NCBI GenBank assembly: GCA_965242865.1
Contig: CBDETK010000013.1
Coordinates: forward strand, 576,001-640,000
Source of the DNA: Candidatus Latescibacterota bacterium
GTDB lineage: Bacteria; Latescibacterota; UBA2968; UBA8231
Length of the DNA stretch: 64,000 bases
Reading direction: 5' to 3'
The notes beneath the pieces are model-generated. The model saw only the letters and a list, made by a program, of their open reading frames with translations. It did not search any database and was not told the DNA's origin. Of this stretch, positions 13,740 to 23,712 are shown in pieces; positions within the stretch are counted from its first letter, which is position 1; each line of letters begins with the position of its first letter. A program made the translations under genes and the position numbers.

Positions 13740-16015
13740 CGGGTCGCATCCGCGCCTTGTGCTTGGCCGGCCTTTGCTTCGGCTGCCAAGCTGCGCCCGA
13801 GGCCGAAAGCGACCGCGTCTATGCCGAGGCCCTGCGCCTGCTGCACCAAGGCCGGTTCGCCGCGGCCGCCGATCGCTTCGAGCACGTCGTCCGCTTGGCG
13901 CCCGACAGCGCGATTGCCCAGATCCGCCGCGGCGAAGCCCTGCTCCGCCAAGGCCGGTGGCAGAGCGCGGGCCGCTTGCTCGACGAGCTGCCGACGCCGG
14001 CGCGCCAGCGGCCCGAGGCCCGCCTCCTCGAAGCGCGGCTCCTCGCCTTTGGCGGTTTTGCCCGCGAAGCCGAGCTGGCCGTCAACGAGGTCCTCGACCA
14101 ATATCCCCACTCGCTCGACGGTCGCCTGCTGCTGGCCGAGCTATACCTACAGGCCGCCGCGACCATGAACCTAGAGCGCGCCACAGCCCTGTGCAGCCAA
14201 GCACTGGCCGCCCAACCCCAGCGCCGCGACGCGCATTACCTCTTAGTCCAAGCCACGCTGCGCCTCGGCCGCTTTCCCGCGGCCTTGGAGCGCAGCCGCT
14301 CGTTGCTCGACGCCTATCCAGACGACGGTCGCGCCTATCTCTTGGCCGGCACGGCCGCCTTCTGGGCCGGCGACGACCGCGCCCGGCCTTGGCTCGAAAG
14401 AGCGGTTGATTTGCTGGAATCGCTCGACCGGCTAGAGGCCCTGTGGCTGCTCAAACTGGCCCACGAGCGACAGGGGCCGGCTGCGTCAGCGCTGCGGCCG
14501 CGCCACCGCTTTCCCCTGCATCCCTCAGGGCCAGCCGCGACCGACGTGCGCTTTGTCGATGTGGCCGCTCGCGTGGGCGTGGCCAAAAAGGATCGCGGCC
14601 GCGGCAGCGCTTGGCTCGACTTTGACGGCGATGGCGACTTCGATCTGTTCAGCGTTGGCATCCAAGCCGAACACGCGCTGTACCGCAACGACCGTGGCCG
14701 ATTTCGCGAGGTGGCCCACGCGGCCGGGCTCGCCGATGCCCGCGGCGGTTGGGCGGCCGCGAGCGCGGACTTTGACAACGACGGGGACGACGATCTCTTT
14801 GTCAGCCGCGACGCTTGGGAGGGCCGCGCGCCCAACTCGCTGTACCGAAACGATGCGGGCGCATTCCGCGACGTGGGCTTGGCCGATTCCAGCGACAGCT
14901 TTACGGCCGCTTGGCTCGACTTCGACCGCGATGGATACCTCGATTTGTACGTGGCCAACGGCGTCACGGGTTCGGGCGCGCCAAACGCCCTCCTGCACAA
15001 CCAGCAAACCGGCGCGTTCCTCAACGTAGCCGCAGCGGCTGCGGTCGCCGATTCGGGCAAGACCATTGGCACGGCCGCGGGCGACTTTGACGGCGACGGC
15101 TGGACCGACTTGTACGCGGTCAACATCGGCCAACTCAACCGCCTCTATCGCAACCTCGGCGACGGCACCTTTGCCGACATAGCCGAGCGCGCTGGCGTCC
15201 TTTTTCCGGTGGAAGGCGGGTATGTGGCGTTCTCGTTTGACCTTGACAACGACGGGCATCTCGACCTATTTGCTTCCACTATGAGCGCCTTTCCCGATGT
15301 CCTCAACAGCATGGTCACCGGTGAGGCCATTGAGCCGAACCGGCCCTTTCTCTATCGCAACTTGGGCGACGGCACCTTTGCCGACATCACAGTCGCGGCC
15401 GGGCTCAACCGTTCGTTCGGCAGCATGGGCGCGGGGCTGGGCGATATAGACAACGACGGCTTCGTCGATATGTACCTCGCCAACGGCGGCCCGCAAATGG
15501 CCCGCCTCGAACCCAACGCGCTGTTCCGCAACTTGGGCGACGGCACCTTTGCCGACATTACGGCCGCAACCGGCACCGGCAGCCTCGGCAAGGGCCACGG
15601 GGCCACCTTTGCCGACTTTGATCGAGACGGCGACTTGGACCTCTACGCTGGCTTGGGAGGCCACTACGACGCCGACACGTGGGCCAACGCGCTCTATCGC
15701 AACGACGGCCCGGCGCGGCACTACCTAGCCATTGAGCTGGTGGGGACCGAGGCCAACCGCAGTGCCCTCGGCGTGCGCGTCGCAGCCTTTGCCGAGGGCC
15801 GCGCCATCCGCGCCCAGCGCCAGAGCGGCTTTGGCTTTGGCAGCAGCAATGAGCCGCTTTTGCACCTCGGGCTGGGGTCGGCTACCCGCGTCGATAGCCT
15901 GCACGTGCTGTGGCCCGGTCAGCCCCCTCAGCGCTTCTTTGACCTGCCCGTCAATAGCCACATCCGCATCGTCCAACGCGAGGCGCACTACCAAGTTGTC
16001 AGGAGGGCACCATGA
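13736..16015 (+). CDS. TPR + FG-GAP/VCBS repeats + ASPIC/UnbV domain protein (CRTAC1-like)
   Basis: Repeated DFDGDGDxDL and YRNLGDGTFADI; NRSALGVRV, LHLGLG..VDSLHVLWP. Confidence 0.9.
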   Translation: MTGRIRALCLAGLCFGCQAAPEAESDRVYAEALRLLHQGRFAAAADRFEHVVRLAPDSAIAQIRRGEALLRQGRWQSAGRLLDELPTPARQRPEARLLEARLLAFGGFAREAELAVNEVLDQYPHSLDGRLLLAELYLQAAATMNLERATALCSQALAAQPQRRDAHYLLVQATLRLGRFPAALERSRSLLDAYPDDGRAYLLAGTAAFWAGDDRARPWLERAVDLLESLDRLEALWLLKLAHERQGPAASALRPRHRFPLHPSGPAATDVRFVDVAARVGVAKKDRGRGSAWLDFDGDGDFDLFSVGIQAEHALYRNDRGRFREVAHAAGLADARGGWAAASADFDNDGDDDLFVSRDAWEGRAPNSLYRNDAGAFRDVGLADSSDSFTAAWLDFDRDGYLDLYVANGVTGSGAPNALLHNQQTGAFLNVAAAAAVADSGKTIGTAAGDFDGDGWTDLYAVNIGQLNRLYRNLGDGTFADIAERAGVLFPVEGGYVAFSFDLDNDGHLDLFASTMSAFPDVLNSMVTGEAIEPNRPFLYRNLGDGTFADITVAAGLNRSFGSMGAGLGDIDNDGFVDMYLANGGPQMARLEPNALFRNLGDGTFADITAATGTGSLGKGHGATFADFDRDGDLDLYAGLGGHYDADTWANALYRNDGPARHYLAIELVGTEANRSALGVRVAAFAEGRAIRAQRQSGFGFGSSNEPLLHLGLGSATRVDSLHVLWPGQPPQRFFDLPVNSHIRIVQREAHYQVVRRAP

Positions 16016-19002
16016 GGCTCTTAGCGTTGCTCGTCCTTTGCTCGGCGTCGCTGGCCACAGTCCAAGCCCAACAGGGCCACCGCGTCACCAGCCGCTCGGT
16101 AGAAGTCAACCGGGCCGCGCACTGGCGCAACTGGCAGTTGCCCACCCACGCGGTGAAGGTGTCGCCAGCGGGCGTGGTTGAGCCGCACTTTTTCCGCGCC
16201 CGCTTCAACCTGCTCGACGATCTAGCGACCTTTACCCGCCCCATCCCGGATCTGCGCCGCCGCCGCAATCAGACCGCCATCCTCAACATCGACAGCACCC
16301 GAACCCGCGACGTAAAAGGCGAGATCATCCTCGACCGCAAGGGCAACCCCATCTACTCCTACTTCTTTCGCCCGGGCATCAGTCGCGTCGGCTCAAACTC
16401 AGCCGCGGCCGCCCACATCCTCGACGCGGACCCAACCACCTTTTGGGAGCCCGACCCGCAGGCCCCGCTCGACGACTGGTGGATCGAACTGGACTTGGGC
16501 CGCGTGGTGGCCGTCGATTCCCTCGTCCTCCACTTTGTCGAGGAAGAGTTGGGCGACCCCTTCTTCCAGTTCCGAGTCCTCGCCGCGCCCGACCAAGAGC
16601 CGGTGTGGGAAAACGCCGACAAAATCACCTTTGAGCGAATCGCCCACACCAAGGCCCCCAACCGCGACCAACGCACCTTTCGCATCGGCCTCGAACAACT
16701 CGACGCCGACCCGGATTGGCGCGGCAAAATGGTGCAGACCATCCGCATCGTAGTCAGCGATACCCGCGGCGAGCGCGGCGAGCGGCTCAGCGAAGCGGAA
16801 TGGCAGGCCCTGCCCGCGGACGAGCGCGGGGCGATCGTCTATTTCATTCGCGACGAACAGGGCTTTGAAGAGCCGGTCGAGCGCGCGGTTTATGAAAGCC
16901 TCGATGCCCCGCGCCAAGGCCGCCTCGATTACTACCGGCGCGAGCGGCCGCGCCTCGCCGGAATCGAGGTGCATGGGTTTGGCGACAACATCAGCAGCGG
17001 CTTGGTGGCCGGCGGCGGCCAGCTCGACCTGACCGGCGACGGCTTTTTGCCGGGGCCGGCTTTTGACGCGGATTTCAACACCAGCTTCCTGCACCTCGTG
17101 TGGTCGCCGACCATTGACCGCGGCGTGCTCACCGTTGACTTGGGCGCGTCGTTTTGGCTCGACGCCATGCGGATTTCCTCGGCCCGGCCCCAGCCTTTTA
17201 TCGACGGCTACCTGATCCGCGGCTCCGACGGCTCGCGCGACACCCGCGGCAAAATCAAGTGGGCGCGGCTAAGCCCCCGCTTTCGCGAGGACAACAGCAC
17301 CGATCGCTTTGAGCACATCGTCGATACCTACCCCCACAGCCCCAAGCTCCGCTTCCTCGAAGTGAGCATCGTCTCGTCGGACCCGCGCCGCCGAGGGGGC
17401 TACAACACCGGGCCGACCATTGCCGAGTACCAGCTTTTTTCCACCGGCTACCCCGCGCAAGTCGCGCTGACTTCCGACCTGATCGCGCTGCCTGGGGCGC
17501 GCAACTTTGGGGCCATCACTTGGGAAGCCGAGACGCCCCCGGGCACGACCGTCGCCGTCCGCACCCGCACCGGCGACTTGCTGGGCAAGGTCATCCGCTA
17601 CTTCGACAAAACGGGCAACGAAATCGCCTACGATGCGTGGAAAAACCTCTTGGGCAGCTTCAAGGGGCCAGCCGACACCTCCTTCGTCCCCACCAGCGGC
17701 TGGAGCCCGTGGAGCCGCGCCTATCAGCAGCCCGGCGACATGGTCACCTCCCCCGGCCTACGCAAGTTCATGCAGTTCCAAGTCGAGATGATCACCACCG
17801 ACCGCACGGTCGCCTCGTCAATCCGCTCCCTCGCCGTCGAGCTCCTCCACCCCGTAGCCCAACGCATCACCGCCGAGTTGTGGCCGCCCTCCGTGGCGGC
17901 CTCCGGGGTGCGGGAAACCTTTGACGTCTTCGCCCAGCCCACTTTCATCGAGTCGCCAGCGCGCTCGCGCAGCACGGGCTTCAACGAAATCCTGCTGACC
18001 ATGCCGGCCTCGGACCAGCTCGAACTCGTGGAGCTGGGCATTGCCGGCCCGGCCGGCGAACGAGTCTTTCGCCCCGCCGCCGCCGACTCAGCGCGAATCG
18101 CGCTGTTGGCCAATGGCGGCGACTCGATCTGGGTGCGCCTAGACGACGCGCTCAACATCCTGCCAGCGGCCCGCCGCACGTACCATCGCATTGCCCTCGA
18201 AGGCGAAGAGGTGCCGGTTACGCAAGGCGGCTTGCCGCTTACGGGCGCGGCCTATGGCACCCTCGACCAAGACGAGCGCGGCGCCATCCGCTACTTCCGC
18301 CGCACCGGCGACCGGCTCAGCGAAATCGACCAAACTAGCTACCAGAGCCTGCCCAGCGCGGAGCAAGGCCCGATCCGCTACTTCCGCATTCTGCGCGGCG
18401 ACGGCGCCCAGTTCCCCTTTAACGCGCTCGGCGACTCGCTCGACTTGGTCGCGTACAATCGCCTTTCCGCGCCCCAGCGCGGCCTAGTCGCCGGCCCGGG
18501 TCCGCGCCTGCGCGTGCGTCTGTCCGCCCCGGTCTTTCTCAACGGCACGACCTTGCGCCTGTTCGTGCGCCACGCGGCCACCGCCAGCGCCGACGCTGCG
18601 TGGCAGGCCGTTGAAGCGGGCAACGCGGCCGACAGCGTCGCCAGCAACACGCTTTCGATCAACGTCCCCATCGACGGCGAGCTCGTTCAGGGCCTCGCCG
18701 TCGGTCCCAACCCGTTTACGCCCAACGGCGACGGGATCAACGACGCGGCTGAAATCTCGCTGGAGATCTTCAAGCTCACGTCGAGTCGCCGCCTCCAAGT
18801 GCGCATGTACGCGCTCGATGGGCGGCGGGTTTGGCAGCGCGAGGAAATGGTGTTGAGCGGCCGCACCGCAGTGCGTTGGGACGGCAGCGATGACCGGGGC
18901 CGCCGAGTGCCGCCCGGGCTGTATCTGTGCCAAGTCCAGCTCGAGGCCGACGCCACTGGCTTCCCGACGAGCCAAGCGCGGGTTATCGCCGTGGCCTACT
19001 GA
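16012..19002 (+). CDS. Large secreted protein with discoidin-like segments and C-terminal FlgD-Ig/CHU_C-type domain
   Basis: Signal peptide; LDADPTTFW..WIELDLG; PNPFTPNGDGIND..WDGSDDRGRRVPPGLY. Confidence 0.75.
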   Translation: MRLLALLVLCSASLATVQAQQGHRVTSRSVEVNRAAHWRNWQLPTHAVKVSPAGVVEPHFFRARFNLLDDLATFTRPIPDLRRRRNQTAILNIDSTRTRDVKGEIILDRKGNPIYSYFFRPGISRVGSNSAAAAHILDADPTTFWEPDPQAPLDDWWIELDLGRVVAVDSLVLHFVEEELGDPFFQFRVLAAPDQEPVWENADKITFERIAHTKAPNRDQRTFRIGLEQLDADPDWRGKMVQTIRIVVSDTRGERGERLSEAEWQALPADERGAIVYFIRDEQGFEEPVERAVYESLDAPRQGRLDYYRRERPRLAGIEVHGFGDNISSGLVAGGGQLDLTGDGFLPGPAFDADFNTSFLHLVWSPTIDRGVLTVDLGASFWLDAMRISSARPQPFIDGYLIRGSDGSRDTRGKIKWARLSPRFREDNSTDRFEHIVDTYPHSPKLRFLEVSIVSSDPRRRGGYNTGPTIAEYQLFSTGYPAQVALTSDLIALPGARNFGAITWEAETPPGTTVAVRTRTGDLLGKVIRYFDKTGNEIAYDAWKNLLGSFKGPADTSFVPTSGWSPWSRAYQQPGDMVTSPGLRKFMQFQVEMITTDRTVASSIRSLAVELLHPVAQRITAELWPPSVAASGVRETFDVFAQPTFIESPARSRSTGFNEILLTMPASDQLELVELGIAGPAGERVFRPAAADSARIALLANGGDSIWVRLDDALNILPAARRTYHRIALEGEEVPVTQGGLPLTGAAYGTLDQDERGAIRYFRRTGDRLSEIDQTSYQSLPSAEQGPIRYFRILRGDGAQFPFNALGDSLDLVAYNRLSAPQRGLVAGPGPRLRVRLSAPVFLNGTTLRLFVRHAATASADAAWQAVEAGNAADSVASNTLSINVPIDGELVQGLAVGPNPFTPNGDGINDAAEISLEIFKLTSSRRLQVRMYALDGRRVWQREEMVLSGRTAVRWDGSDDRGRRVPPGLYLCQVQLEADATGFPTSQARVIAVAY

Positions 19003-19124
19003 TCGAGGAGGAGGAGCTTGCGACGATCACAATCGGTCCTGCATACTAGTTAGGTGGTAACGGTCAATCCGGCCCACGCTTCTTGGCTGTATCCTCACTG
19101 TGAGCATAGCGGGAAGTTATATAC

Positions 19125-19153
19125 TTGATACCGGAAATTAGGGCCGTTATAAT
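19125..19153 (+). promoter_or_regulatory. Sigma70-type promoter TTGATA-17 bp-TATAAT with CCGG in the spacer
   Basis: -35 at 19125-19130, -10 at 19148-19153; SD GGAGG before ATG 19179/19182. Confidence 0.75.
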
Positions 19154-19178
19154 ATGCTAACCATCTAACGGAGGATGA

Positions 19179-19590
19179 ATGATGACACAACCTATCGTCA
19201 GCAACTACGACCTGTTCCGCTTGTTTTCTGGCGAAGACGAGGAGTCAGCACGCACCCGGTTGGAATCCGTGCGTTGGGGCGGCCATATAATTTGTCCCCA
19301 TTGCGGCAGCCACAACATCTATACTAGAACTGGCAAGCGTACGGGGATCCATGACTGCCGCGATTGCCTCTCGTACTTCAGCGTCCGGACGGGGACGGTC
19401 TTTGAGAACTCACGCATTGCGTTGCGGGATTGGATTCACGCAATTTATCTACTGATGACGGCACACAAGGACATAAGCAGCATCCAGTTGTCAAAGGAGA
19501 TGGGCGTAACTCAGAAAACGGGATGGCTTATACTGCACAGACTGCATACCGCTTGCGGGGGGAATATGGAAGCCCTGCGTGGAATGGTTG
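19179..19590 (+). mobile_element. IS1595-family transposase N-terminus (Zn ribbon + HTH), DDE domain missing
   Basis: RWGG..CPHCG..CRDC..FSVRTGTVFENSRI..ISSIQLSKEMGVTQKTGW; ends at LRGMV just before the usual EIDE motif. Confidence 0.85.
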
Positions 19591-20471
19591 GAGGTGCGGG
19601 TCCAATGAGCAGGCTCGACGCCGGCTTGAGCCACGTCATGTCCTATCGCCCCGAGCATTTAACTGAGAACCCGTGTATCCTCGTCCAAGGCGACGCCACA
19701 AAGAGGGACACCCTGAAACGCGAATGCGCGGACTTGATCGTTACATCGCCGCCTTACAACATAGGCAAAGCCTACAATGGGTATGCGGAAGCCGATGAAA
19801 AATCCTACGACGATTATTTGAAGTTCTCTAAAAAGTGGCTGCGGAACTGCTACTTTTGGACTCGACCAACCGGCCGTCTATGTGTCAATGTGTCAATTGA
19901 CAAAAATCGCAACGGAAAAGTCCCACTATCCGCCGATATAACCAAAATAGCAATGGATGCCGGATGGTCTTATCATGCTACCATTATATGGAACGAGGGA
20001 AACATTAGCCGTCGGACGGCTTGGGGCAGTTGGAAATCTGCTAGCGCACCGCACATCATCGCGCCGGTTGAAACAATTATTGTCCTCTATAAGGGCCGCT
20101 GGAAGCGGGAACGACAGGGTACGAGTGACATTAGCGGAGAAGAGTTCAAGGATTGGGTATTGGGAGTTTGGAATTTTAACGGTGAAAGTGCAAAACGGAT
20201 TGGGCACGAAGCCCCGTTCCCACGTGCCTTACCGGAGCGGTGCATTAAGTTGCTATCTTTTCCCGGCGATACCGTGCTCGATCCATTTGCTGGCTCTGGT
20301 ACCACCTTGATAGAGGCGGTGGAACGCGGGCGGAGTGCGCTTGGGATCGAGCTAGAAAAGAAATACTGCGACCTGATTAAGCAAAGGATTGAAAAGGAAT
20401 GCAAAGTGAGATTGGAGACATCACAACAGGTGACGCCGGCGAAATCTACACTTCTCTGCTGGGCGGCATAG
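19179..20471 (+). CDS. Beta-class N4/N6 DNA methyltransferase, in frame with the IS1595 N-terminus; possible internal start at 19605
   Basis: DLIVTSPPY, HEAPFP, VLDPFAGSGTT; GGAGGT SD upstream of ATG 19605. Confidence 0.9.
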   Translation: MMTQPIVSNYDLFRLFSGEDEESARTRLESVRWGGHIICPHCGSHNIYTRTGKRTGIHDCRDCLSYFSVRTGTVFENSRIALRDWIHAIYLLMTAHKDISSIQLSKEMGVTQKTGWLILHRLHTACGGNMEALRGMVGGAGPMSRLDAGLSHVMSYRPEHLTENPCILVQGDATKRDTLKRECADLIVTSPPYNIGKAYNGYAEADEKSYDDYLKFSKKWLRNCYFWTRPTGRLCVNVSIDKNRNGKVPLSADITKIAMDAGWSYHATIIWNEGNISRRTAWGSWKSASAPHIIAPVETIIVLYKGRWKRERQGTSDISGEEFKDWVLGVWNFNGESAKRIGHEAPFPRALPERCIKLLSFPGDTVLDPFAGSGTTLIEAVERGRSALGIELEKKYCDLIKQRIEKECKVRLETSQQVTPAKSTLLCWAA

Positions 20472-20980
20472 CTTCCTATCGCTCCGCGCATGAGTTCATA
20501 GGCACTGCCTACGAGATGTATCTATCCGGGTATCCAACTAACCCAAGCGTCAATGGCAAAGTATTTGAACTGCTCGTATTTGAAACCTTGGTACGCGAGA
20601 ATGTGCTCCCGTTTTACTATCAAGCGCAGATCTCCCTCGTTCCAAACGTCGTCTTCGATTTTGTCTGTTTTAACCTCAGAAAACCTGTCGTTCTCTCGTG
20701 CAAGGTCTCGTTGCGCGAACGCTACAAACAGGCCGACCTTGAAGGTACGGTCTTGCGGCAAGTCTATCGCTTGGCCGAAAGTTATCTCTTGACGTTAAGC
20801 GATGAACAAACGGGAGTTCAGGACAAGATCGTGAAAGGGGACATTGCTGGCTTGGCCTCTTGCATCCGAGCGGATTCCGAACAGTACACCCGCCTGCTGG
20901 CCGAACTCTCCAAACGCGAGTTTGTAGAGGCGAGCCCTATAAAGCCGTTGTGCGGTTCGTTATTTTCGTTATCCCAGTAA
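20399..20980 (+). CDS. Putative type II restriction endonuclease, CCGG-family (Cfr10I/NgoMIV/EcoRII-C-like motif)
   Basis: NGKVFE, FDFV..LSCKVSLRERYKQADLE; overlaps the MTase 3' end. Confidence 0.7.
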   Translation: MQSEIGDITTGDAGEIYTSLLGGIASYRSAHEFIGTAYEMYLSGYPTNPSVNGKVFELLVFETLVRENVLPFYYQAQISLVPNVVFDFVCFNLRKPVVLSCKVSLRERYKQADLEGTVLRQVYRLAESYLLTLSDEQTGVQDKIVKGDIAGLASCIRADSEQYTRLLAELSKREFVEASPIKPLCGSLFSLSQ

Positions 20981-20996
20981 ACCGTTGCCTAACGCC

Positions 20997-21020: not shown

Positions 21021-21048
21021 AGGTACTTCCACTAAGGAGGGATTGCAG

Positions 21049-23712
21049 GTGAACCGGAGATGGATATGCCAGACGGCAATCGCCGTCCTGTGGCTCGGCA
21101 GTGCGACCGCCGACGCCCAGACCTATGGAGCGCGCACGGGCACGGTCAAACGAGGCGGGGTGGTTTCCTTTGAGCCCCAGGGGCCGGGCGTCCTGTTCGA
21201 TGCTCTCGACCCGGCCAAGCGCCGGTGGTACGTGCCGCAAGAGCTGTTTAACGAATACCAGTGGCGGCAATGGGAATACTCCAACTACGCCCGCGATCAC
21301 TACCAGCGCTACGTCAGCGCCATCCACGAGGGCGATTACTACTACGACCTCTACGGCAACCTCATCACCCGCGGCTGGCTGATTTTCAACAACTCCCAGA
21401 CCCAGCCCCGGCAGTTTGGCTCTTCGGTGCTGAAGTCTGGAAAATTCGAGGGCTGGTTTAGCGGCTTGGTCGTCTCGGCCGACTCTCGGGGCCAGCACCA
21501 CTACGCCCTGACGGCCGGCACCAAGATCCGCTCGACCCTGACGCCGATGACCTTTTCCAAGCCGCGCTGGGACGGCATTCAATTCGACTACGCGGCCGAC
21601 AAATACCAAGGCACCCTGATTTACTCGCGCATCAGCCGCCCCGGGGGCACGTCGACCAACGATCAAGAGAGCTTGGTCACCAACGCCACGTCCATGTTCG
21701 GCAGCCGCGTCACCGCGCAGGTGGGCGACTTTGCCACGCTCGGTTTGACCATGGTCAACGCCCACCAGTCCAACACCCTCATCGACGGCTTTACCGGCAA
21801 CCCCTTCACCGGCGAGCTATCGGTCGATCAAAACCAGACCGTCTCGATCATCGAGATCGTCTTGCGCGACGACAGCCCGGCCGATGGGGTCGGCGGCGCG
21901 GCCTTCTTCAGCGCCGGCTCGGACATCATCATCACCTATCTCGACGGCACCCAAGAAAACGGCAAGGCCATTCGCTTTGAGCCGATCGTCGAGGGCGGCC
22001 TCGTGGGCGAAGGCTTCCTTTCGGCCGACGGCGTCGAGGAAATTCGCCTGCGCTACGACTTTGACAGCCCGGCCTTTGTCAACCGCGCTTCCGGGACCAA
22101 AGAAGAGATCAAAAAGGTCGAGTTCCGCCTCGTGCTGGGCAACGACTATCAGGTCTGGGTTACCTCCGACAGCCAGCTCAACGCGAGCGGCGAGTCCGTG
22201 CTGTTGCTCGTCGCCCAAGCCGCGGGCAACGTGCGAGACAACACCAATTTGCAGATCGTCAGCTTCGACTATGGCCTCCCGACCTCCACCCAGATCTGGG
22301 GAGCCACCCTAGAACTGAAAAAGGTCCTCGGCTTTGACTTCTACGGCGAGTACGACCTTAGCTACAGCTACACCAAATACCCCAATGTGGTTGCCAAGAC
22401 CCACACCACCTTTTCGGGCATCCGCGGCGACCGGGCTGCGGCCGCGTGGATGATAAACCTGTCGCGGGCCGCGTTTCCCTTCTTCTTCTTGGGCGAGGCG
22501 TACAGCATGGATCCGCGCTACTCCACCCGCACGTTCACCGCCCAAGGCGATGGCTTTATCGACTACGAGGACGAGCGCATCCACGTGGTCGAGCTCGTCG
22601 AGGACAACGACGACCAAGACGAATTTCCCGACACCGTGCGCAAGGACTGGCAGACCGGCGACCCAAGCGTCTTTCCCGGCTGGGACGAGAACAACGACTT
22701 CATCTCGGATTTCAATCAGAACGACAACCGCTTCTTGAGCAACCTCATCCCAGACTACGAGGAGCCGTTTTTGCGCCACAACGTCGATCGGCCCGAATTC
22801 CTCTTCGGCATTGACCTAAACAACAACCTGTGGGTCGATCGCTTTGAAAACGACGAACTACCCGACTATCCCTACAAGAAGGATCACCGCGGGTACAACG
22901 CCTACGGCGGCGTCCACCTCACCCCAGAGGTGCGGCTGATGGTCGGCGTCTTGCGCGAGGGCCTCATTTCTTCCAATCAGAAAAACCACGCCAATTACGC
23001 CTTGCTGACCCTCGACCGCCACACGCCCACTTGGGGGCGCTTCCGCGTCTTTGAGATGCTCAAATCCACCACCGACGACATTCCCGACGACCTCTTGCAG
23101 TGGCTGCCCAGTGCCAATATCCGCACCGGCGAACCGACCAAGGTCGAGGATCCGCTCATCGCCCGCGACGCTTGGATCAACAGCCTGTGGATCGGCCACG
23201 ACTACGAGCTGCGCGGCCTGCTGACGGCCAATTTTATCAAGTACGACCTGTACCACTCGCGGCTCAGCGCCAACGAGCGCGCGCTGTTGGGCCTGCGCCA
23301 GCGCGACTTTTTCTTTGGCCTGATCAACAAGATCAGCTACCGCTTCGACTTTGGCCGCCTGTGGCTGGAGCCGCGCTGGAAAAGCGAGTACCGCCGCCAA
23401 AGCCGCGACCTGATTGCGGCCGAAAAGCGCACCGAGCTAGCCGAGATCGGCGGCTTTATCCTCGGCTTTCCCCTGCTGAGCCACACGAACCTGCTGAGCG
23501 GGCTGGAGCTGACCTTCCTCAACGACATGGAGCGCGACTCCAACGACTTCAACGGCCTAGTCTGGGCCTTGCAGCTATCCAATATCTCCGATTACCTCGG
23601 CTACAAGGTCACGACCCATGCGGGCATGAAAATCGACCGCCACCAGCCCCGGGGCGAGGACGCCGTGATCATTAACCAGTTCTTCATTTCCATCTACGCC
23701 GGCTTGCAATAA
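21049..23712 (+). CDS. Large exported hypothetical protein, probable outer-membrane beta-barrel with Asp/Asn-rich Ca-binding-like loops
   Basis: SD AAGGAGG then GTG; signal peptide; alternating hydrophobic C-terminal strands; EDNDDQD, DENNDFISD, DLNNN. Confidence 0.6.
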   Translation: MNRRWICQTAIAVLWLGSATADAQTYGARTGTVKRGGVVSFEPQGPGVLFDALDPAKRRWYVPQELFNEYQWRQWEYSNYARDHYQRYVSAIHEGDYYYDLYGNLITRGWLIFNNSQTQPRQFGSSVLKSGKFEGWFSGLVVSADSRGQHHYALTAGTKIRSTLTPMTFSKPRWDGIQFDYAADKYQGTLIYSRISRPGGTSTNDQESLVTNATSMFGSRVTAQVGDFATLGLTMVNAHQSNTLIDGFTGNPFTGELSVDQNQTVSIIEIVLRDDSPADGVGGAAFFSAGSDIIITYLDGTQENGKAIRFEPIVEGGLVGEGFLSADGVEEIRLRYDFDSPAFVNRASGTKEEIKKVEFRLVLGNDYQVWVTSDSQLNASGESVLLLVAQAAGNVRDNTNLQIVSFDYGLPTSTQIWGATLELKKVLGFDFYGEYDLSYSYTKYPNVVAKTHTTFSGIRGDRAAAAWMINLSRAAFPFFFLGEAYSMDPRYSTRTFTAQGDGFIDYEDERIHVVELVEDNDDQDEFPDTVRKDWQTGDPSVFPGWDENNDFISDFNQNDNRFLSNLIPDYEEPFLRHNVDRPEFLFGIDLNNNLWVDRFENDELPDYPYKKDHRGYNAYGGVHLTPEVRLMVGVLREGLISSNQKNHANYALLTLDRHTPTWGRFRVFEMLKSTTDDIPDDLLQWLPSANIRTGEPTKVEDPLIARDAWINSLWIGHDYELRGLLTANFIKYDLYHSRLSANERALLGLRQRDFFFGLINKISYRFDFGRLWLEPRWKSEYRRQSRDLIAAEKRTELAEIGGFILGFPLLSHTNLLSGLELTFLNDMERDSNDFNGLVWALQLSNISDYLGYKVTTHAGMKIDRHQPRGEDAVIINQFFISIYAGLQ

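Follow-up and report, generated by a model that had tools for sequence, protein, structure and literature searches.

A DNA methyltransferase gene with an IS1595 transposase-derived head in the relic of a transporter insertion sequence from Candidatus Latescibacterota

Copies of insertion sequences (IS) that carry passenger genes are an established kind of element, the transporter IS, according to the part of PMC3129680 that cites Siguier, Gagnevin & Chandler 2009, and the title of that 2009 paper, as given among the references of PMC3129680, calls IS1595 a relative of IS1. In IS1, as described in passages of PMC12428005, the promoter overlaps the left inverted repeat (IRL), and InsA, which consists of a Zn finger and a helix-turn-helix (HTH), a domain common to it and the transposase, represses this promoter and competes for both ends. 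For restriction-modification (R-M) systems, PMC3978073 and PMC2760811 describe M.SsoII and M.Ecl18kI as controlling R-M transcription via a separate N-terminal DNA-binding domain, and passages of PMC2853133 describe putative mobile R-M forms whose genes either are linked to transposase homologues or lie between inverted repeats, with short target duplications. Here we describe a locus with traits of all of these, from Candidatus Latescibacterota bacterium (assembly GCA_965242865.1, contig CBDETK010000013.1, positions 576,001-640,000 of the forward strand). This stretch of 64,000 nucleotides (nt) is the window, and all positions below count from its first letter. It holds a cassette in which the N-terminal part of an IS1595 transposase is fused in frame to a DNA methyltransferase (MTase), whose gene is overlapped by that of an endonuclease.

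On comparison with its relatives the insert can be recognised as an immobilised relic of an IS1595-family transporter IS with a Type II R-M system as its cargo. The fused gene reads as the transposase-MTase layout of these relatives minus about 0.5 kb, from the first DDE residue to some 15 nt before the MTase start, since the transposase homology stops at amino acid (aa) 137 and resumes about 15 nt before the MTase ATG. We regard an origin by deletion from a transporter IS as very nearly certain. The features of the cassette that bear on this are the following.

19111..19134, + strand: left terminal inverted repeat (IRL), GGGAAGTTATATACTTGATACCGG, of an IS1595-family element; candidate operator
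19125..19153, + strand: sigma-70-like promoter TTGATA-17-TATAAT, 11/12 of the consensus; the IS's own transposase promoter
19179..20471, + strand: fused gene, 430 aa, with IS1595 Zn-ribbon/HTH head, linker and beta-class DNA methyltransferase (open reading frame (ORF), Pfam, NCBIfam)
19179..19589, + strand: transposase-derived head, aa 1-137; Zn ribbon, then HTH helices at aa 82-94, 101-108 and 112-125
19557..19562, + strand: G6 homopolymer just upstream of the junction, where the contig of one related allele (P0395/P0002, below) is frameshifted
19590..19604, + strand: deletion joint and linker (GGAGP), the last ~15 nt of the old transposase gene in another frame; holds GGAGG at 19590-19594
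19605..20471, + strand: methyltransferase proper, aa 143-430, with its native ATG; SPPY at aa 190-193, FAGSGT at about aa 370-376
20399..20980, + strand: restriction endonuclease, 193 aa, PspGI/EcoRII-C/Ecl18kI/BsaWI-like by profile, by the Pfam family of its relatives and by Foldseek

An earlier note on this DNA had taken the 430-aa ORF for an IS1595 head of about 137 aa, cut just before the DDE core and continuing into an SPPY-type MTase, and Pfam, NCBIfam and alignment bear this out. Zn_ribbon_IS1595 (PF12760) matches aa 20-63 (nt 19236-19367; E 2.7e-10, 40.5 bits against a cut-off of 25.4), and the Zn ligands C39, C42, C60 and C63 are invariant in an alignment with three full-length IS1595 transposases. 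NCBIfam transpos_IS1595 (NF033547) follows at aa 77-137, which correspond to profile positions 1-64 of 215; in Pfam, the DDE-type catalytic domain PF12762 has no match in the fused protein. Homology to the three full-length transposases ends at LRGMV (about aa 137), where theirs goes on with VE(V/I)DETYIGG, the start of the DDE core with its first acidic residue. In the AlphaFold model of the head (mean pLDDT 81.8) blocks covering roughly aa 20-130 reach 85-95, while aa 138-142 fall below 50 as a predicted disordered linker, and the domain border agrees with the N-termini of the MTase relatives. Foldseek found no match to the head model in the PDB at E <=0.001, its weak rows being Zn-ribbon ribosomal proteins and winged-helix regulators.

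The remainder of the protein is an MTase of ordinary build. N6_N4_Mtase (PF01555) matches aa 185-401 in Pfam (E 4.6e-45; 154.7 bits, where the cut-off is 26.7). S190-P-P-Y193 and F370..G372-S-G374 do not vary among the aligned relatives, and motif IV precedes motif I, the beta-class order. MTase relatives of 260-300 aa at 60-90% identity start near M143. By sequence its relatives in the PDB are the TTHA0409-type methylase 2zie (E 3.8e-25), the N4-cytosine MTase 8s9n, M.RsrI and CcrM, the entries among them being 2zie, 8s9n, 1eg2 and 6pbd. An SPPY motif is a sign of N4-cytosine methylation, and its presence here suggests this activity for the MTase.

Relatives of the MTase place the deletion in context. 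From an alignment-based scan of GTDB contigs we kept 80 MTase loci and sorted them by tblastn: 16 have an IS1595 head upstream of the MTase (L017 and 15 loci of one Nitrosomonadaceae metagenome-assembled genome (MAG)), eight have the MTase with this endonuclease and no transposase part, and the other 56 have the MTase only. The Nitrosomonadaceae MAG, OZ252054.1, holds 15 or more copies of a related, recently active IS1595 transporter IS (L018-L028, L030, L031, L037 and L043), consisting of transposase, MTase and endonuclease or endonuclease remnant between fixed ends, IRL GGGAACTATATACTTTACACCGG and right inverted repeat (IRR) ...CCGGTAACAACTACATAAATCCC. The unit measures 2000-2340 nt; both end anchors are present in 14 of the 15 copies, five of which have exact 8-bp target duplications. 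Flanks are exchanged between three pairs of copies, suggesting inversions by recombination between them. The copies fall into three size classes: those of 2038 nt have an intact transposase, those of about 2000 nt have lost 38 nt of the transposase gene, and those of 2331-2340 nt retain most of the endonuclease. Most copies have both the 38-nt deletion and one of 331 nt that leaves only a C-terminal remnant of the endonuclease, of which 179-182 open codons are kept in four copies; no copy combines an intact transposase with the endonuclease.

Two of these loci, L019 and L017, have transposase heads to which that of the window is 47-51% identical. In L019 the transposase is intact (310 aa) and its TGA overlaps the MTase ATG; the window sequence GGTCCAATGAGC matches TGTCCAATGAGC at this overlap. 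The five linker codons are old transposase 3' sequence in a new frame, leading to the MTase's own start codon. We placed the joint by protein alignment and by comparing the left end with relatives, a global aligner having given scattered blocks. In L017 the head frame is open (47% identity, aa 1-137), the DDE part is scrambled, and MTase and endonuclease are whole. The suggestion in the earlier note that an IS carrying an R-M system had lost its catalytic domain is thus supported by intact relatives with inverted repeats and 8-bp duplications, from which the window differs by the deletion of about 0.5 kb.

Searches elsewhere yielded less. A single-protein pattern scan of GTDB contigs returned two distant MTases only, and in two scans of JGI metagenome contigs the fused form was absent and relatives reached 61% identity at most. 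The N-terminal module, searched against 1.84 billion representatives, had 13,074 matches with a best identity of 59%. Among the 150 head relatives listed, 42 are long enough for a second domain, and an MTase domain occurs in none of these 42, DDE_Tnp_IS1595 in 33 and neither of the two in nine. In the nine (P0128, P0130, P0138, P0145, P0146, P0151, P0173, P0194 and P0246) the Zn ribbon is the only Pfam family, the other 100-500 residues matching none; P0130 has three Zn ribbons in 689 aa. These proteins may represent further heads that were re-used or have decayed.

At its left end the element retains its repeat. Some 20 of 23 positions of the IRL match that of the multi-copy Nitrosomonadaceae element, and in reverse complement the IRL of the window agrees with the Nitrosomonadaceae IRR at 18 of 23, a score reached by none of 2000 shuffles. 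Upstream of the fused gene the window aligns with the left end of that IS, repeat and promoter included, and the Nitrosomonadaceae left end has an equivalent layout (TTTACA ... TATAAT). In the window the -35 box, TTGATA at 19125-19130, lies inside the IRL, and the -10 box, TATAAT, at 19148-19153. A Shine-Dalgarno (SD) sequence, GGAGG at 19170-19174, stands 4 nt from the ATG at 19179 and 7 nt from that at 19182, the latter (429 aa) being the better start on account of its 7-nt spacer. The near-consensus promoter and SD that had been read from the sequence beforehand are therefore both present, as is a second SD and start at 19605: here GGAGG at 19590-19594 is followed after 10 nt by the ATG of M143, the native start of the MTase relatives.

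The right end and the host DNA on either side suggest a less orderly arrival, and four further features are needed here.

16012..19002, + strand: host gene left of the insert, 996 aa, with CHU_C type IX secretion sorting domain and F5/8 type C domain
19001..19110, no strand: inserted DNA without host or IS likeness, 110 nt, GC 0.545, not in the empty sites of six same-genus genomes
20968..20990, no strand: right junction and expected IRR site; the IRR is absent and host sequence is back at about 20985-20991
21043..23712, + strand: host gene right of the insert, 889 aa, without a Pfam family and belonging to a large paralogous family

Measured against the empty site of same-genus genomes, the cassette is a low-GC insert of about 1990 extra nt, at about 19001-20990. 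GC content falls from about 0.67 to about 0.51 across it (head 0.54, MTase 0.51, endonuclease 0.50; host 0.61-0.67), and GC at third codon positions is 0.57-0.63 in the three coding parts against 0.84 in the host, so the lower GC claimed for the cassette is borne out. Both flanking genes are present in 24 of 24 same-genus genomes of a first draw. They are separated by 12 nt in G019, G023 and G001, which have the empty site; G013, G002 and G010 complete the six empty sites compared. The left host gene keeps 85-87% nucleotide identity to same-genus genomes up to 19000. The cassette was found in none of 30 other same-genus genomes searched, five of which gave short matches of at most 126 nt. The cassette, the IRL (at up to three mismatches) and the Zn-ribbon family (PF12760) are each found only once in the genome from which the window comes.

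An IRR is missing from the right end of the insert, where comparison with the reverse complement of the IRL gave nothing significant (score 6, shuffle p 0.38), and a repeat search of the cassette found neither a terminal inverted pair nor a flanking direct repeat. The 8-nt flanks of the putative ends agree at only 5 of 8 positions, so a clear 8-bp target duplication is absent too. The IS-derived part does start at an inverted repeat, at 19111, and not directly at the host gene: the 110 nt between match none of the intergenic spacers of relatives and are possibly donor flank. Of the IS1595 terminal repeats and duplication that the earlier note had proposed to look for, the left repeat was thus found, and neither the right repeat nor a clear duplication. 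From the missing IRR, the poor agreement of the flanks and the 110 nt without likeness to a spacer we conclude that the element is immobile in the window and probably did not arrive by clean transposition. A haplotype in one sequencing run (haplotype 2 of run X10, described below) leaves the window sequence behind 20967 and continues into a good IRR (17/21, reached by none of 2000 shuffles), behind which lies unrelated DNA, so that some other locus or organism must have a copy whose right end is complete. The 110 nt are also present in the diverged haplotype of this run, with differences.

Some smaller observations concern the same site. Positions 19044-19062 (TACTAGTTAGGTGGTAACG) look like the empty-site sequence TACTAGTTATTGCTGGAACG, as if the target had been partly duplicated. 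The stop codon of the left host gene is TGA in the window and TAG in the six relatives compared. The family of the 889-aa right gene gives many matches of 67-78% nucleotide identity per genome in every same-genus genome searched.

Could the fusion be an artefact of assembly or annotation, created by a mis-join or an indel error? Our first search gave some reason to ask: it returned 7699 relatives with E <=0.001 among 8000 scored, and of the 120 listed all but the window's own protein cover the last two thirds only (260-330 aa), so that among these 120 the two-domain protein is found in one genome. The 90%-identity cluster of the fused protein has, however, four members: the window protein, P0394, P0396 and P0395. 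P0394 (429 aa) differs from the window by one change. P0396 (432 aa, 96% identity) lies on a different contig, of 1.48 Mb, which also holds an endonuclease fragment. P0395 is a head ORF of 143 aa, on the same 1927-nt contig as P0002, an MTase ORF beginning with MEALRGMVGG, which is aa 130-139 of the window; P0395 leaves the window frame at aa 129, at the G6 run, and the two together have 90% identity. Their contig thus holds the fused gene with one frameshift, a second frameshift joining MTase to endonuclease, and both may be errors. The junction MEALRGM(V/A)GG is common to P0396, P0394 and P0395 with P0002, while the linker varies, reading GGAGPMSRL in the window, GGAGSAGSMSRL in P0396 and GGVSSTIRLNTTSNLI, without an internal Met, in P0002. 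The internal start accordingly varies, one allele (P0002) being without Met and another having a 9-nt insertion that sets the SD 19 nt from the ATG, which weakens the idea of long and short MTase isoforms as a general feature.

Sequencing runs containing parts of the cassette come from four studies, of which we compared one run each (X1, X3, X8 and X10). In X1, which may be the source of the assembly, a 2684-nt contig spans 19000-21050 with 0 differences. In X3, from an independent study, a 2684-nt contig runs across the whole cassette and into host DNA on both sides; it has 4 differences, and the fused gene and the endonuclease each account for one synonymous and one non-synonymous change. 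X8 gave three short identical contigs that lie off the junction. X10 gave 22 pieces in two haplotypes, diverged by about 3-15%; they cover the joint, one of them with an in-frame 9-nt insertion behind 19595 that corresponds to the extra residues of P0396, and on the left a loose end before 19010 continues into the same end of the host gene. The fusion is therefore not unique to this assembly, and its junction is spanned in an independent study; given the X3 contig and the alleles with the same junction we reject the artefact as having a negligible probability.

Whether the head is still of use is a separate matter. Amino-acid divergence of head and MTase is equal in two of three comparisons (7.1 against 7.0% between the window and P0395 with P0002; 5.5 against 5.5% between P0396 and P0395 with P0002). 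An alignment of 44 transposases has 30 columns with conservation of 90% or more, which we took as family-conserved. Variation among the fused alleles affects 14 head positions, none of them in these columns (chance 0.025); of the 30 residues the window has 26, including all four Zn ligands. The N-terminus is thus not decaying freely, as a neutral leftover might. We see in this moderate evidence that the head is under continued constraint, with some sign of change in its DNA-binding surface, and on balance we think it somewhat more likely than not that the head is still under selection.

What the head might do can be stated as a proposal. The fused MTase and the overlapping PspGI-like endonuclease would form an operon transcribed from the old transposase promoter; the head would still recognise the IRL, which covers the -35 box; and, with the head bound there, accumulating MTase would repress its own operon. 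Prerequisites of such a circuit are present, in that the IRL is kept over the -35 box and the head is conserved and predicted to fold. Autoregulation through binding of the IRL by the head is plausible but tentative, and we hold it to be somewhat less likely than not; the whole account (relic origin, operon on the transposase promoter, IRL autoregulation) is our best explanation while falling a little short of probable. Several points weigh against it. That an IS1595 head binds its own inverted repeats is supposed by analogy, from IS1 and other DDE transposases. The argument for selection rests on protein differences between alleles, and in the third comparison, window against P0396, the head differs at 7.4% and the MTase at 2.8%, so that the head appears 2.6 times faster. 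All fused alleles deviate at four conserved residues (P17S, K84D, A115G and R123H), although R123 is conserved in 44 of 44 transposases and K84 in 93%; with H and D in their place, DNA binding could be relaxed or altered. The eight loci with the basic R-M pair have no head, and upstream of these transposase-less loci no shared regulator gene was seen by eye. In the window allele, finally, the MTase could come from the ATG at 19605 alone.

The main rival accepts the same origin and makes the head an inert leftover, kept in frame because the MTase needs the upstream promoter, SD and translation: a stop or frameshift in the head would starve the methylase beside an endonuclease and be purged, while missense changes would drift. 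This would fit the faster head in the window-P0396 comparison, the four changed residues with the otherwise invariant R123, and the headless relatives of the R-M pair. Where the internal start is missing or weakened, as in other alleles, read-through from the head start is needed, and an open frame without head function is thereby explained. It fits less well with the equal divergence of head and MTase in two of three comparisons and with variable positions that avoid the conserved columns and spare the Zn ligands, nor does it lead one to expect that L017 should independently hold an open head frame beside a scrambled DDE part. We consider it possible, with the balance tipped against it. A functional head that is not mainly an operon repressor is a different proposition, and a distinctly improbable one. 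Such a head could block ends as InsA does, occupying those of incoming related IS1595 elements, or the G6 run could act by slippage as a switch between the fused form and a free 143-aa head with a separate MTase, in the manner of InsA/InsAB'. InsA's two roles in IS1, as described in the passages cited above, lend the first option a precedent, and the good IRR in run X10 implies that related ends circulate in the same communities; the window's genome, however, has no other such head (PF12760 at this locus only, the IRL in single copy). The slippage option can point to the contig of P0395 and P0002, frameshifted at the G-run into a 143-aa head ORF and an MTase ORF from M130, except that its second frame change fuses the MTase to the endonuclease and both may be sequencing errors. 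Returning to the autoregulatory circuit, its fullest form would be a domestication in which head and IS end make a self-contained R-M control circuit that also excludes IS1595 elements and is toggled at the G6 run; this we hold to be unlikely.

The endonuclease ORF overlaps the MTase gene by 73 nt, and 499 relatives were found. A single-sequence search of the PDB with the endonuclease gave no match. The K...LRER segment is where a profile of 40 sequences matched PspGI (E 2.3e-4) and, at E 0.059, Ecl18kI; in the case of PspGI, vKvsLRERykqa is aligned to VKRKVRERWREA. K102, R106 (nearly invariant), E107 and R108 are conserved in the family. RE_BsaWI (PF18643) is matched by 34 of 40 family members, the window sequence scoring 17.6 bits, under the 26.2 cut-off. 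With the structural model (pLDDT 93) the top Foldseek matches were PspGI (6.2e-5), EcoRII-C (9e-5), Ecl18kI (4.1e-4) and Kpn2I (6.3e-4), at probability 1.0 and TMq 0.40-0.58, followed by PfoI, SgrAI, Bse634I, Cfr10I and NgoMIV. The enzyme thus belongs to the CC/GG-core family, which suggests a site with a CC/GG core, and its earlier designation as a CCGG-family endonuclease holds at the superfamily level, by the PspGI profile, RE_BsaWI in its relatives and Foldseek.

A few observations on relatives may be added. In L017 the IS remnant, MTase and endonuclease lie as a block between two paralogous genes (L017:1391-2353 and L017:5191-6078; 320 and 295 aa, with similar N-termini). In the window's genome there are two other DDE_Tnp_IS1595 matches, G000:C13:3498947-3499399 (L004) and G000:C13:1438817-1438966 (L005), in open frames of 246 and 126 aa with no Zn_ribbon_IS1595 beside them and in DNA unrelated to the cassette. 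Many of the closest relatives of the MTase, or of MTase and endonuclease together, come from symbiont-type MAGs (L029, L032-L036, L038-L042 and L085) of Poribacteria, Poriferihabitaceae, Amphirhobacter and Phototrophicaceae, and run X3 is labelled a sponge metagenome. The R-M/IS lineage apparently moves among widely differing bacteria that share one kind of habitat.

Few examples are at hand of prokaryotic genes that re-use parts of transposases, and these have usually been inferred from distant homology. At this locus the stages are seen at close range, from an active multi-copy transporter IS through a copy with scrambled DDE part (L017) to an in-frame fusion kept through 4-10% protein divergence, and Type II R-M systems are seen to be carried whole between very different bacteria by small IS1595 elements. 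Should the head bind the retained IS end, an R-M system would have gained a regulator by a single deletion, and regulator-carrying methylases would have a third independent origin, beside C proteins and SsoII-type heads; should the head be inert, the locus would be only a relic.

Among described systems the IS1595 transporter IS is the nearest. The window shares with it the Zn-ribbon/HTH head and an IRL with a GG... terminus, and its intact relatives have 8-bp duplications and cargo directly behind the transposase, with overlapping stop and start; it differs in having no DDE domain, right repeat or clear target duplication, and in that the head has become part of the cargo protein. The mobile units treated by Furuta, Abe & Kobayashi 2010 (PMC2853133) resemble it as R-M units in a transposon-like shell, of low GC and between host genes; the only gene fusion in the passages of that paper considered here joins two MTase fragments, not a transposase head and an MTase. 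Titles and abstract openings of the papers listed on IS1595 passengers and on R-M-transposase fusions contained no transposase-head/MTase fusion either, REBASE being outside this scope. The endonuclease shares with the Type IIP enzymes PspGI, EcoRII-C, Ecl18kI, Kpn2I, NgoMIV and BsaWI the predicted fold and a K-x3-R-E-R segment, whereas it is shorter, at 193 aa against 259-305 in the best-matching chains, with which it has 12-23% identity.

The likeness to InsA, as far as the cited passages describe it, lies in a transposase head that lacks the catalytic domain and is encoded beside an IRL overlapping its own promoter. InsA, however, belongs to a live IS and is a separate protein, produced when no frameshift occurs, while the window head is joined to an MTase and its IS is dead. 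M.SsoII and M.Ecl18kI, again as described in the parts of the papers cited, have the same succession of DNA-binding head, flexible linker and catalytic domain; the window has a candidate operator in its own promoter, and the partner endonucleases Ecl18kI and SsoII are of the same fold family as that of the window. This likeness is one of analogy, not homology, the head being assigned to PF12760 and NF033547 and the core to PF01555 and not to the C5-MTases. Enzymes of the M.SsoII type are C5-cytosine MTases with an HTH region of about 70 aa, encoded by divergent genes; the window enzyme is a beta-class SPPY MTase with a transposase-derived Zn-ribbon and HTH head of 137 aa, encoded with its endonuclease in what appears to be one overlapping operon.

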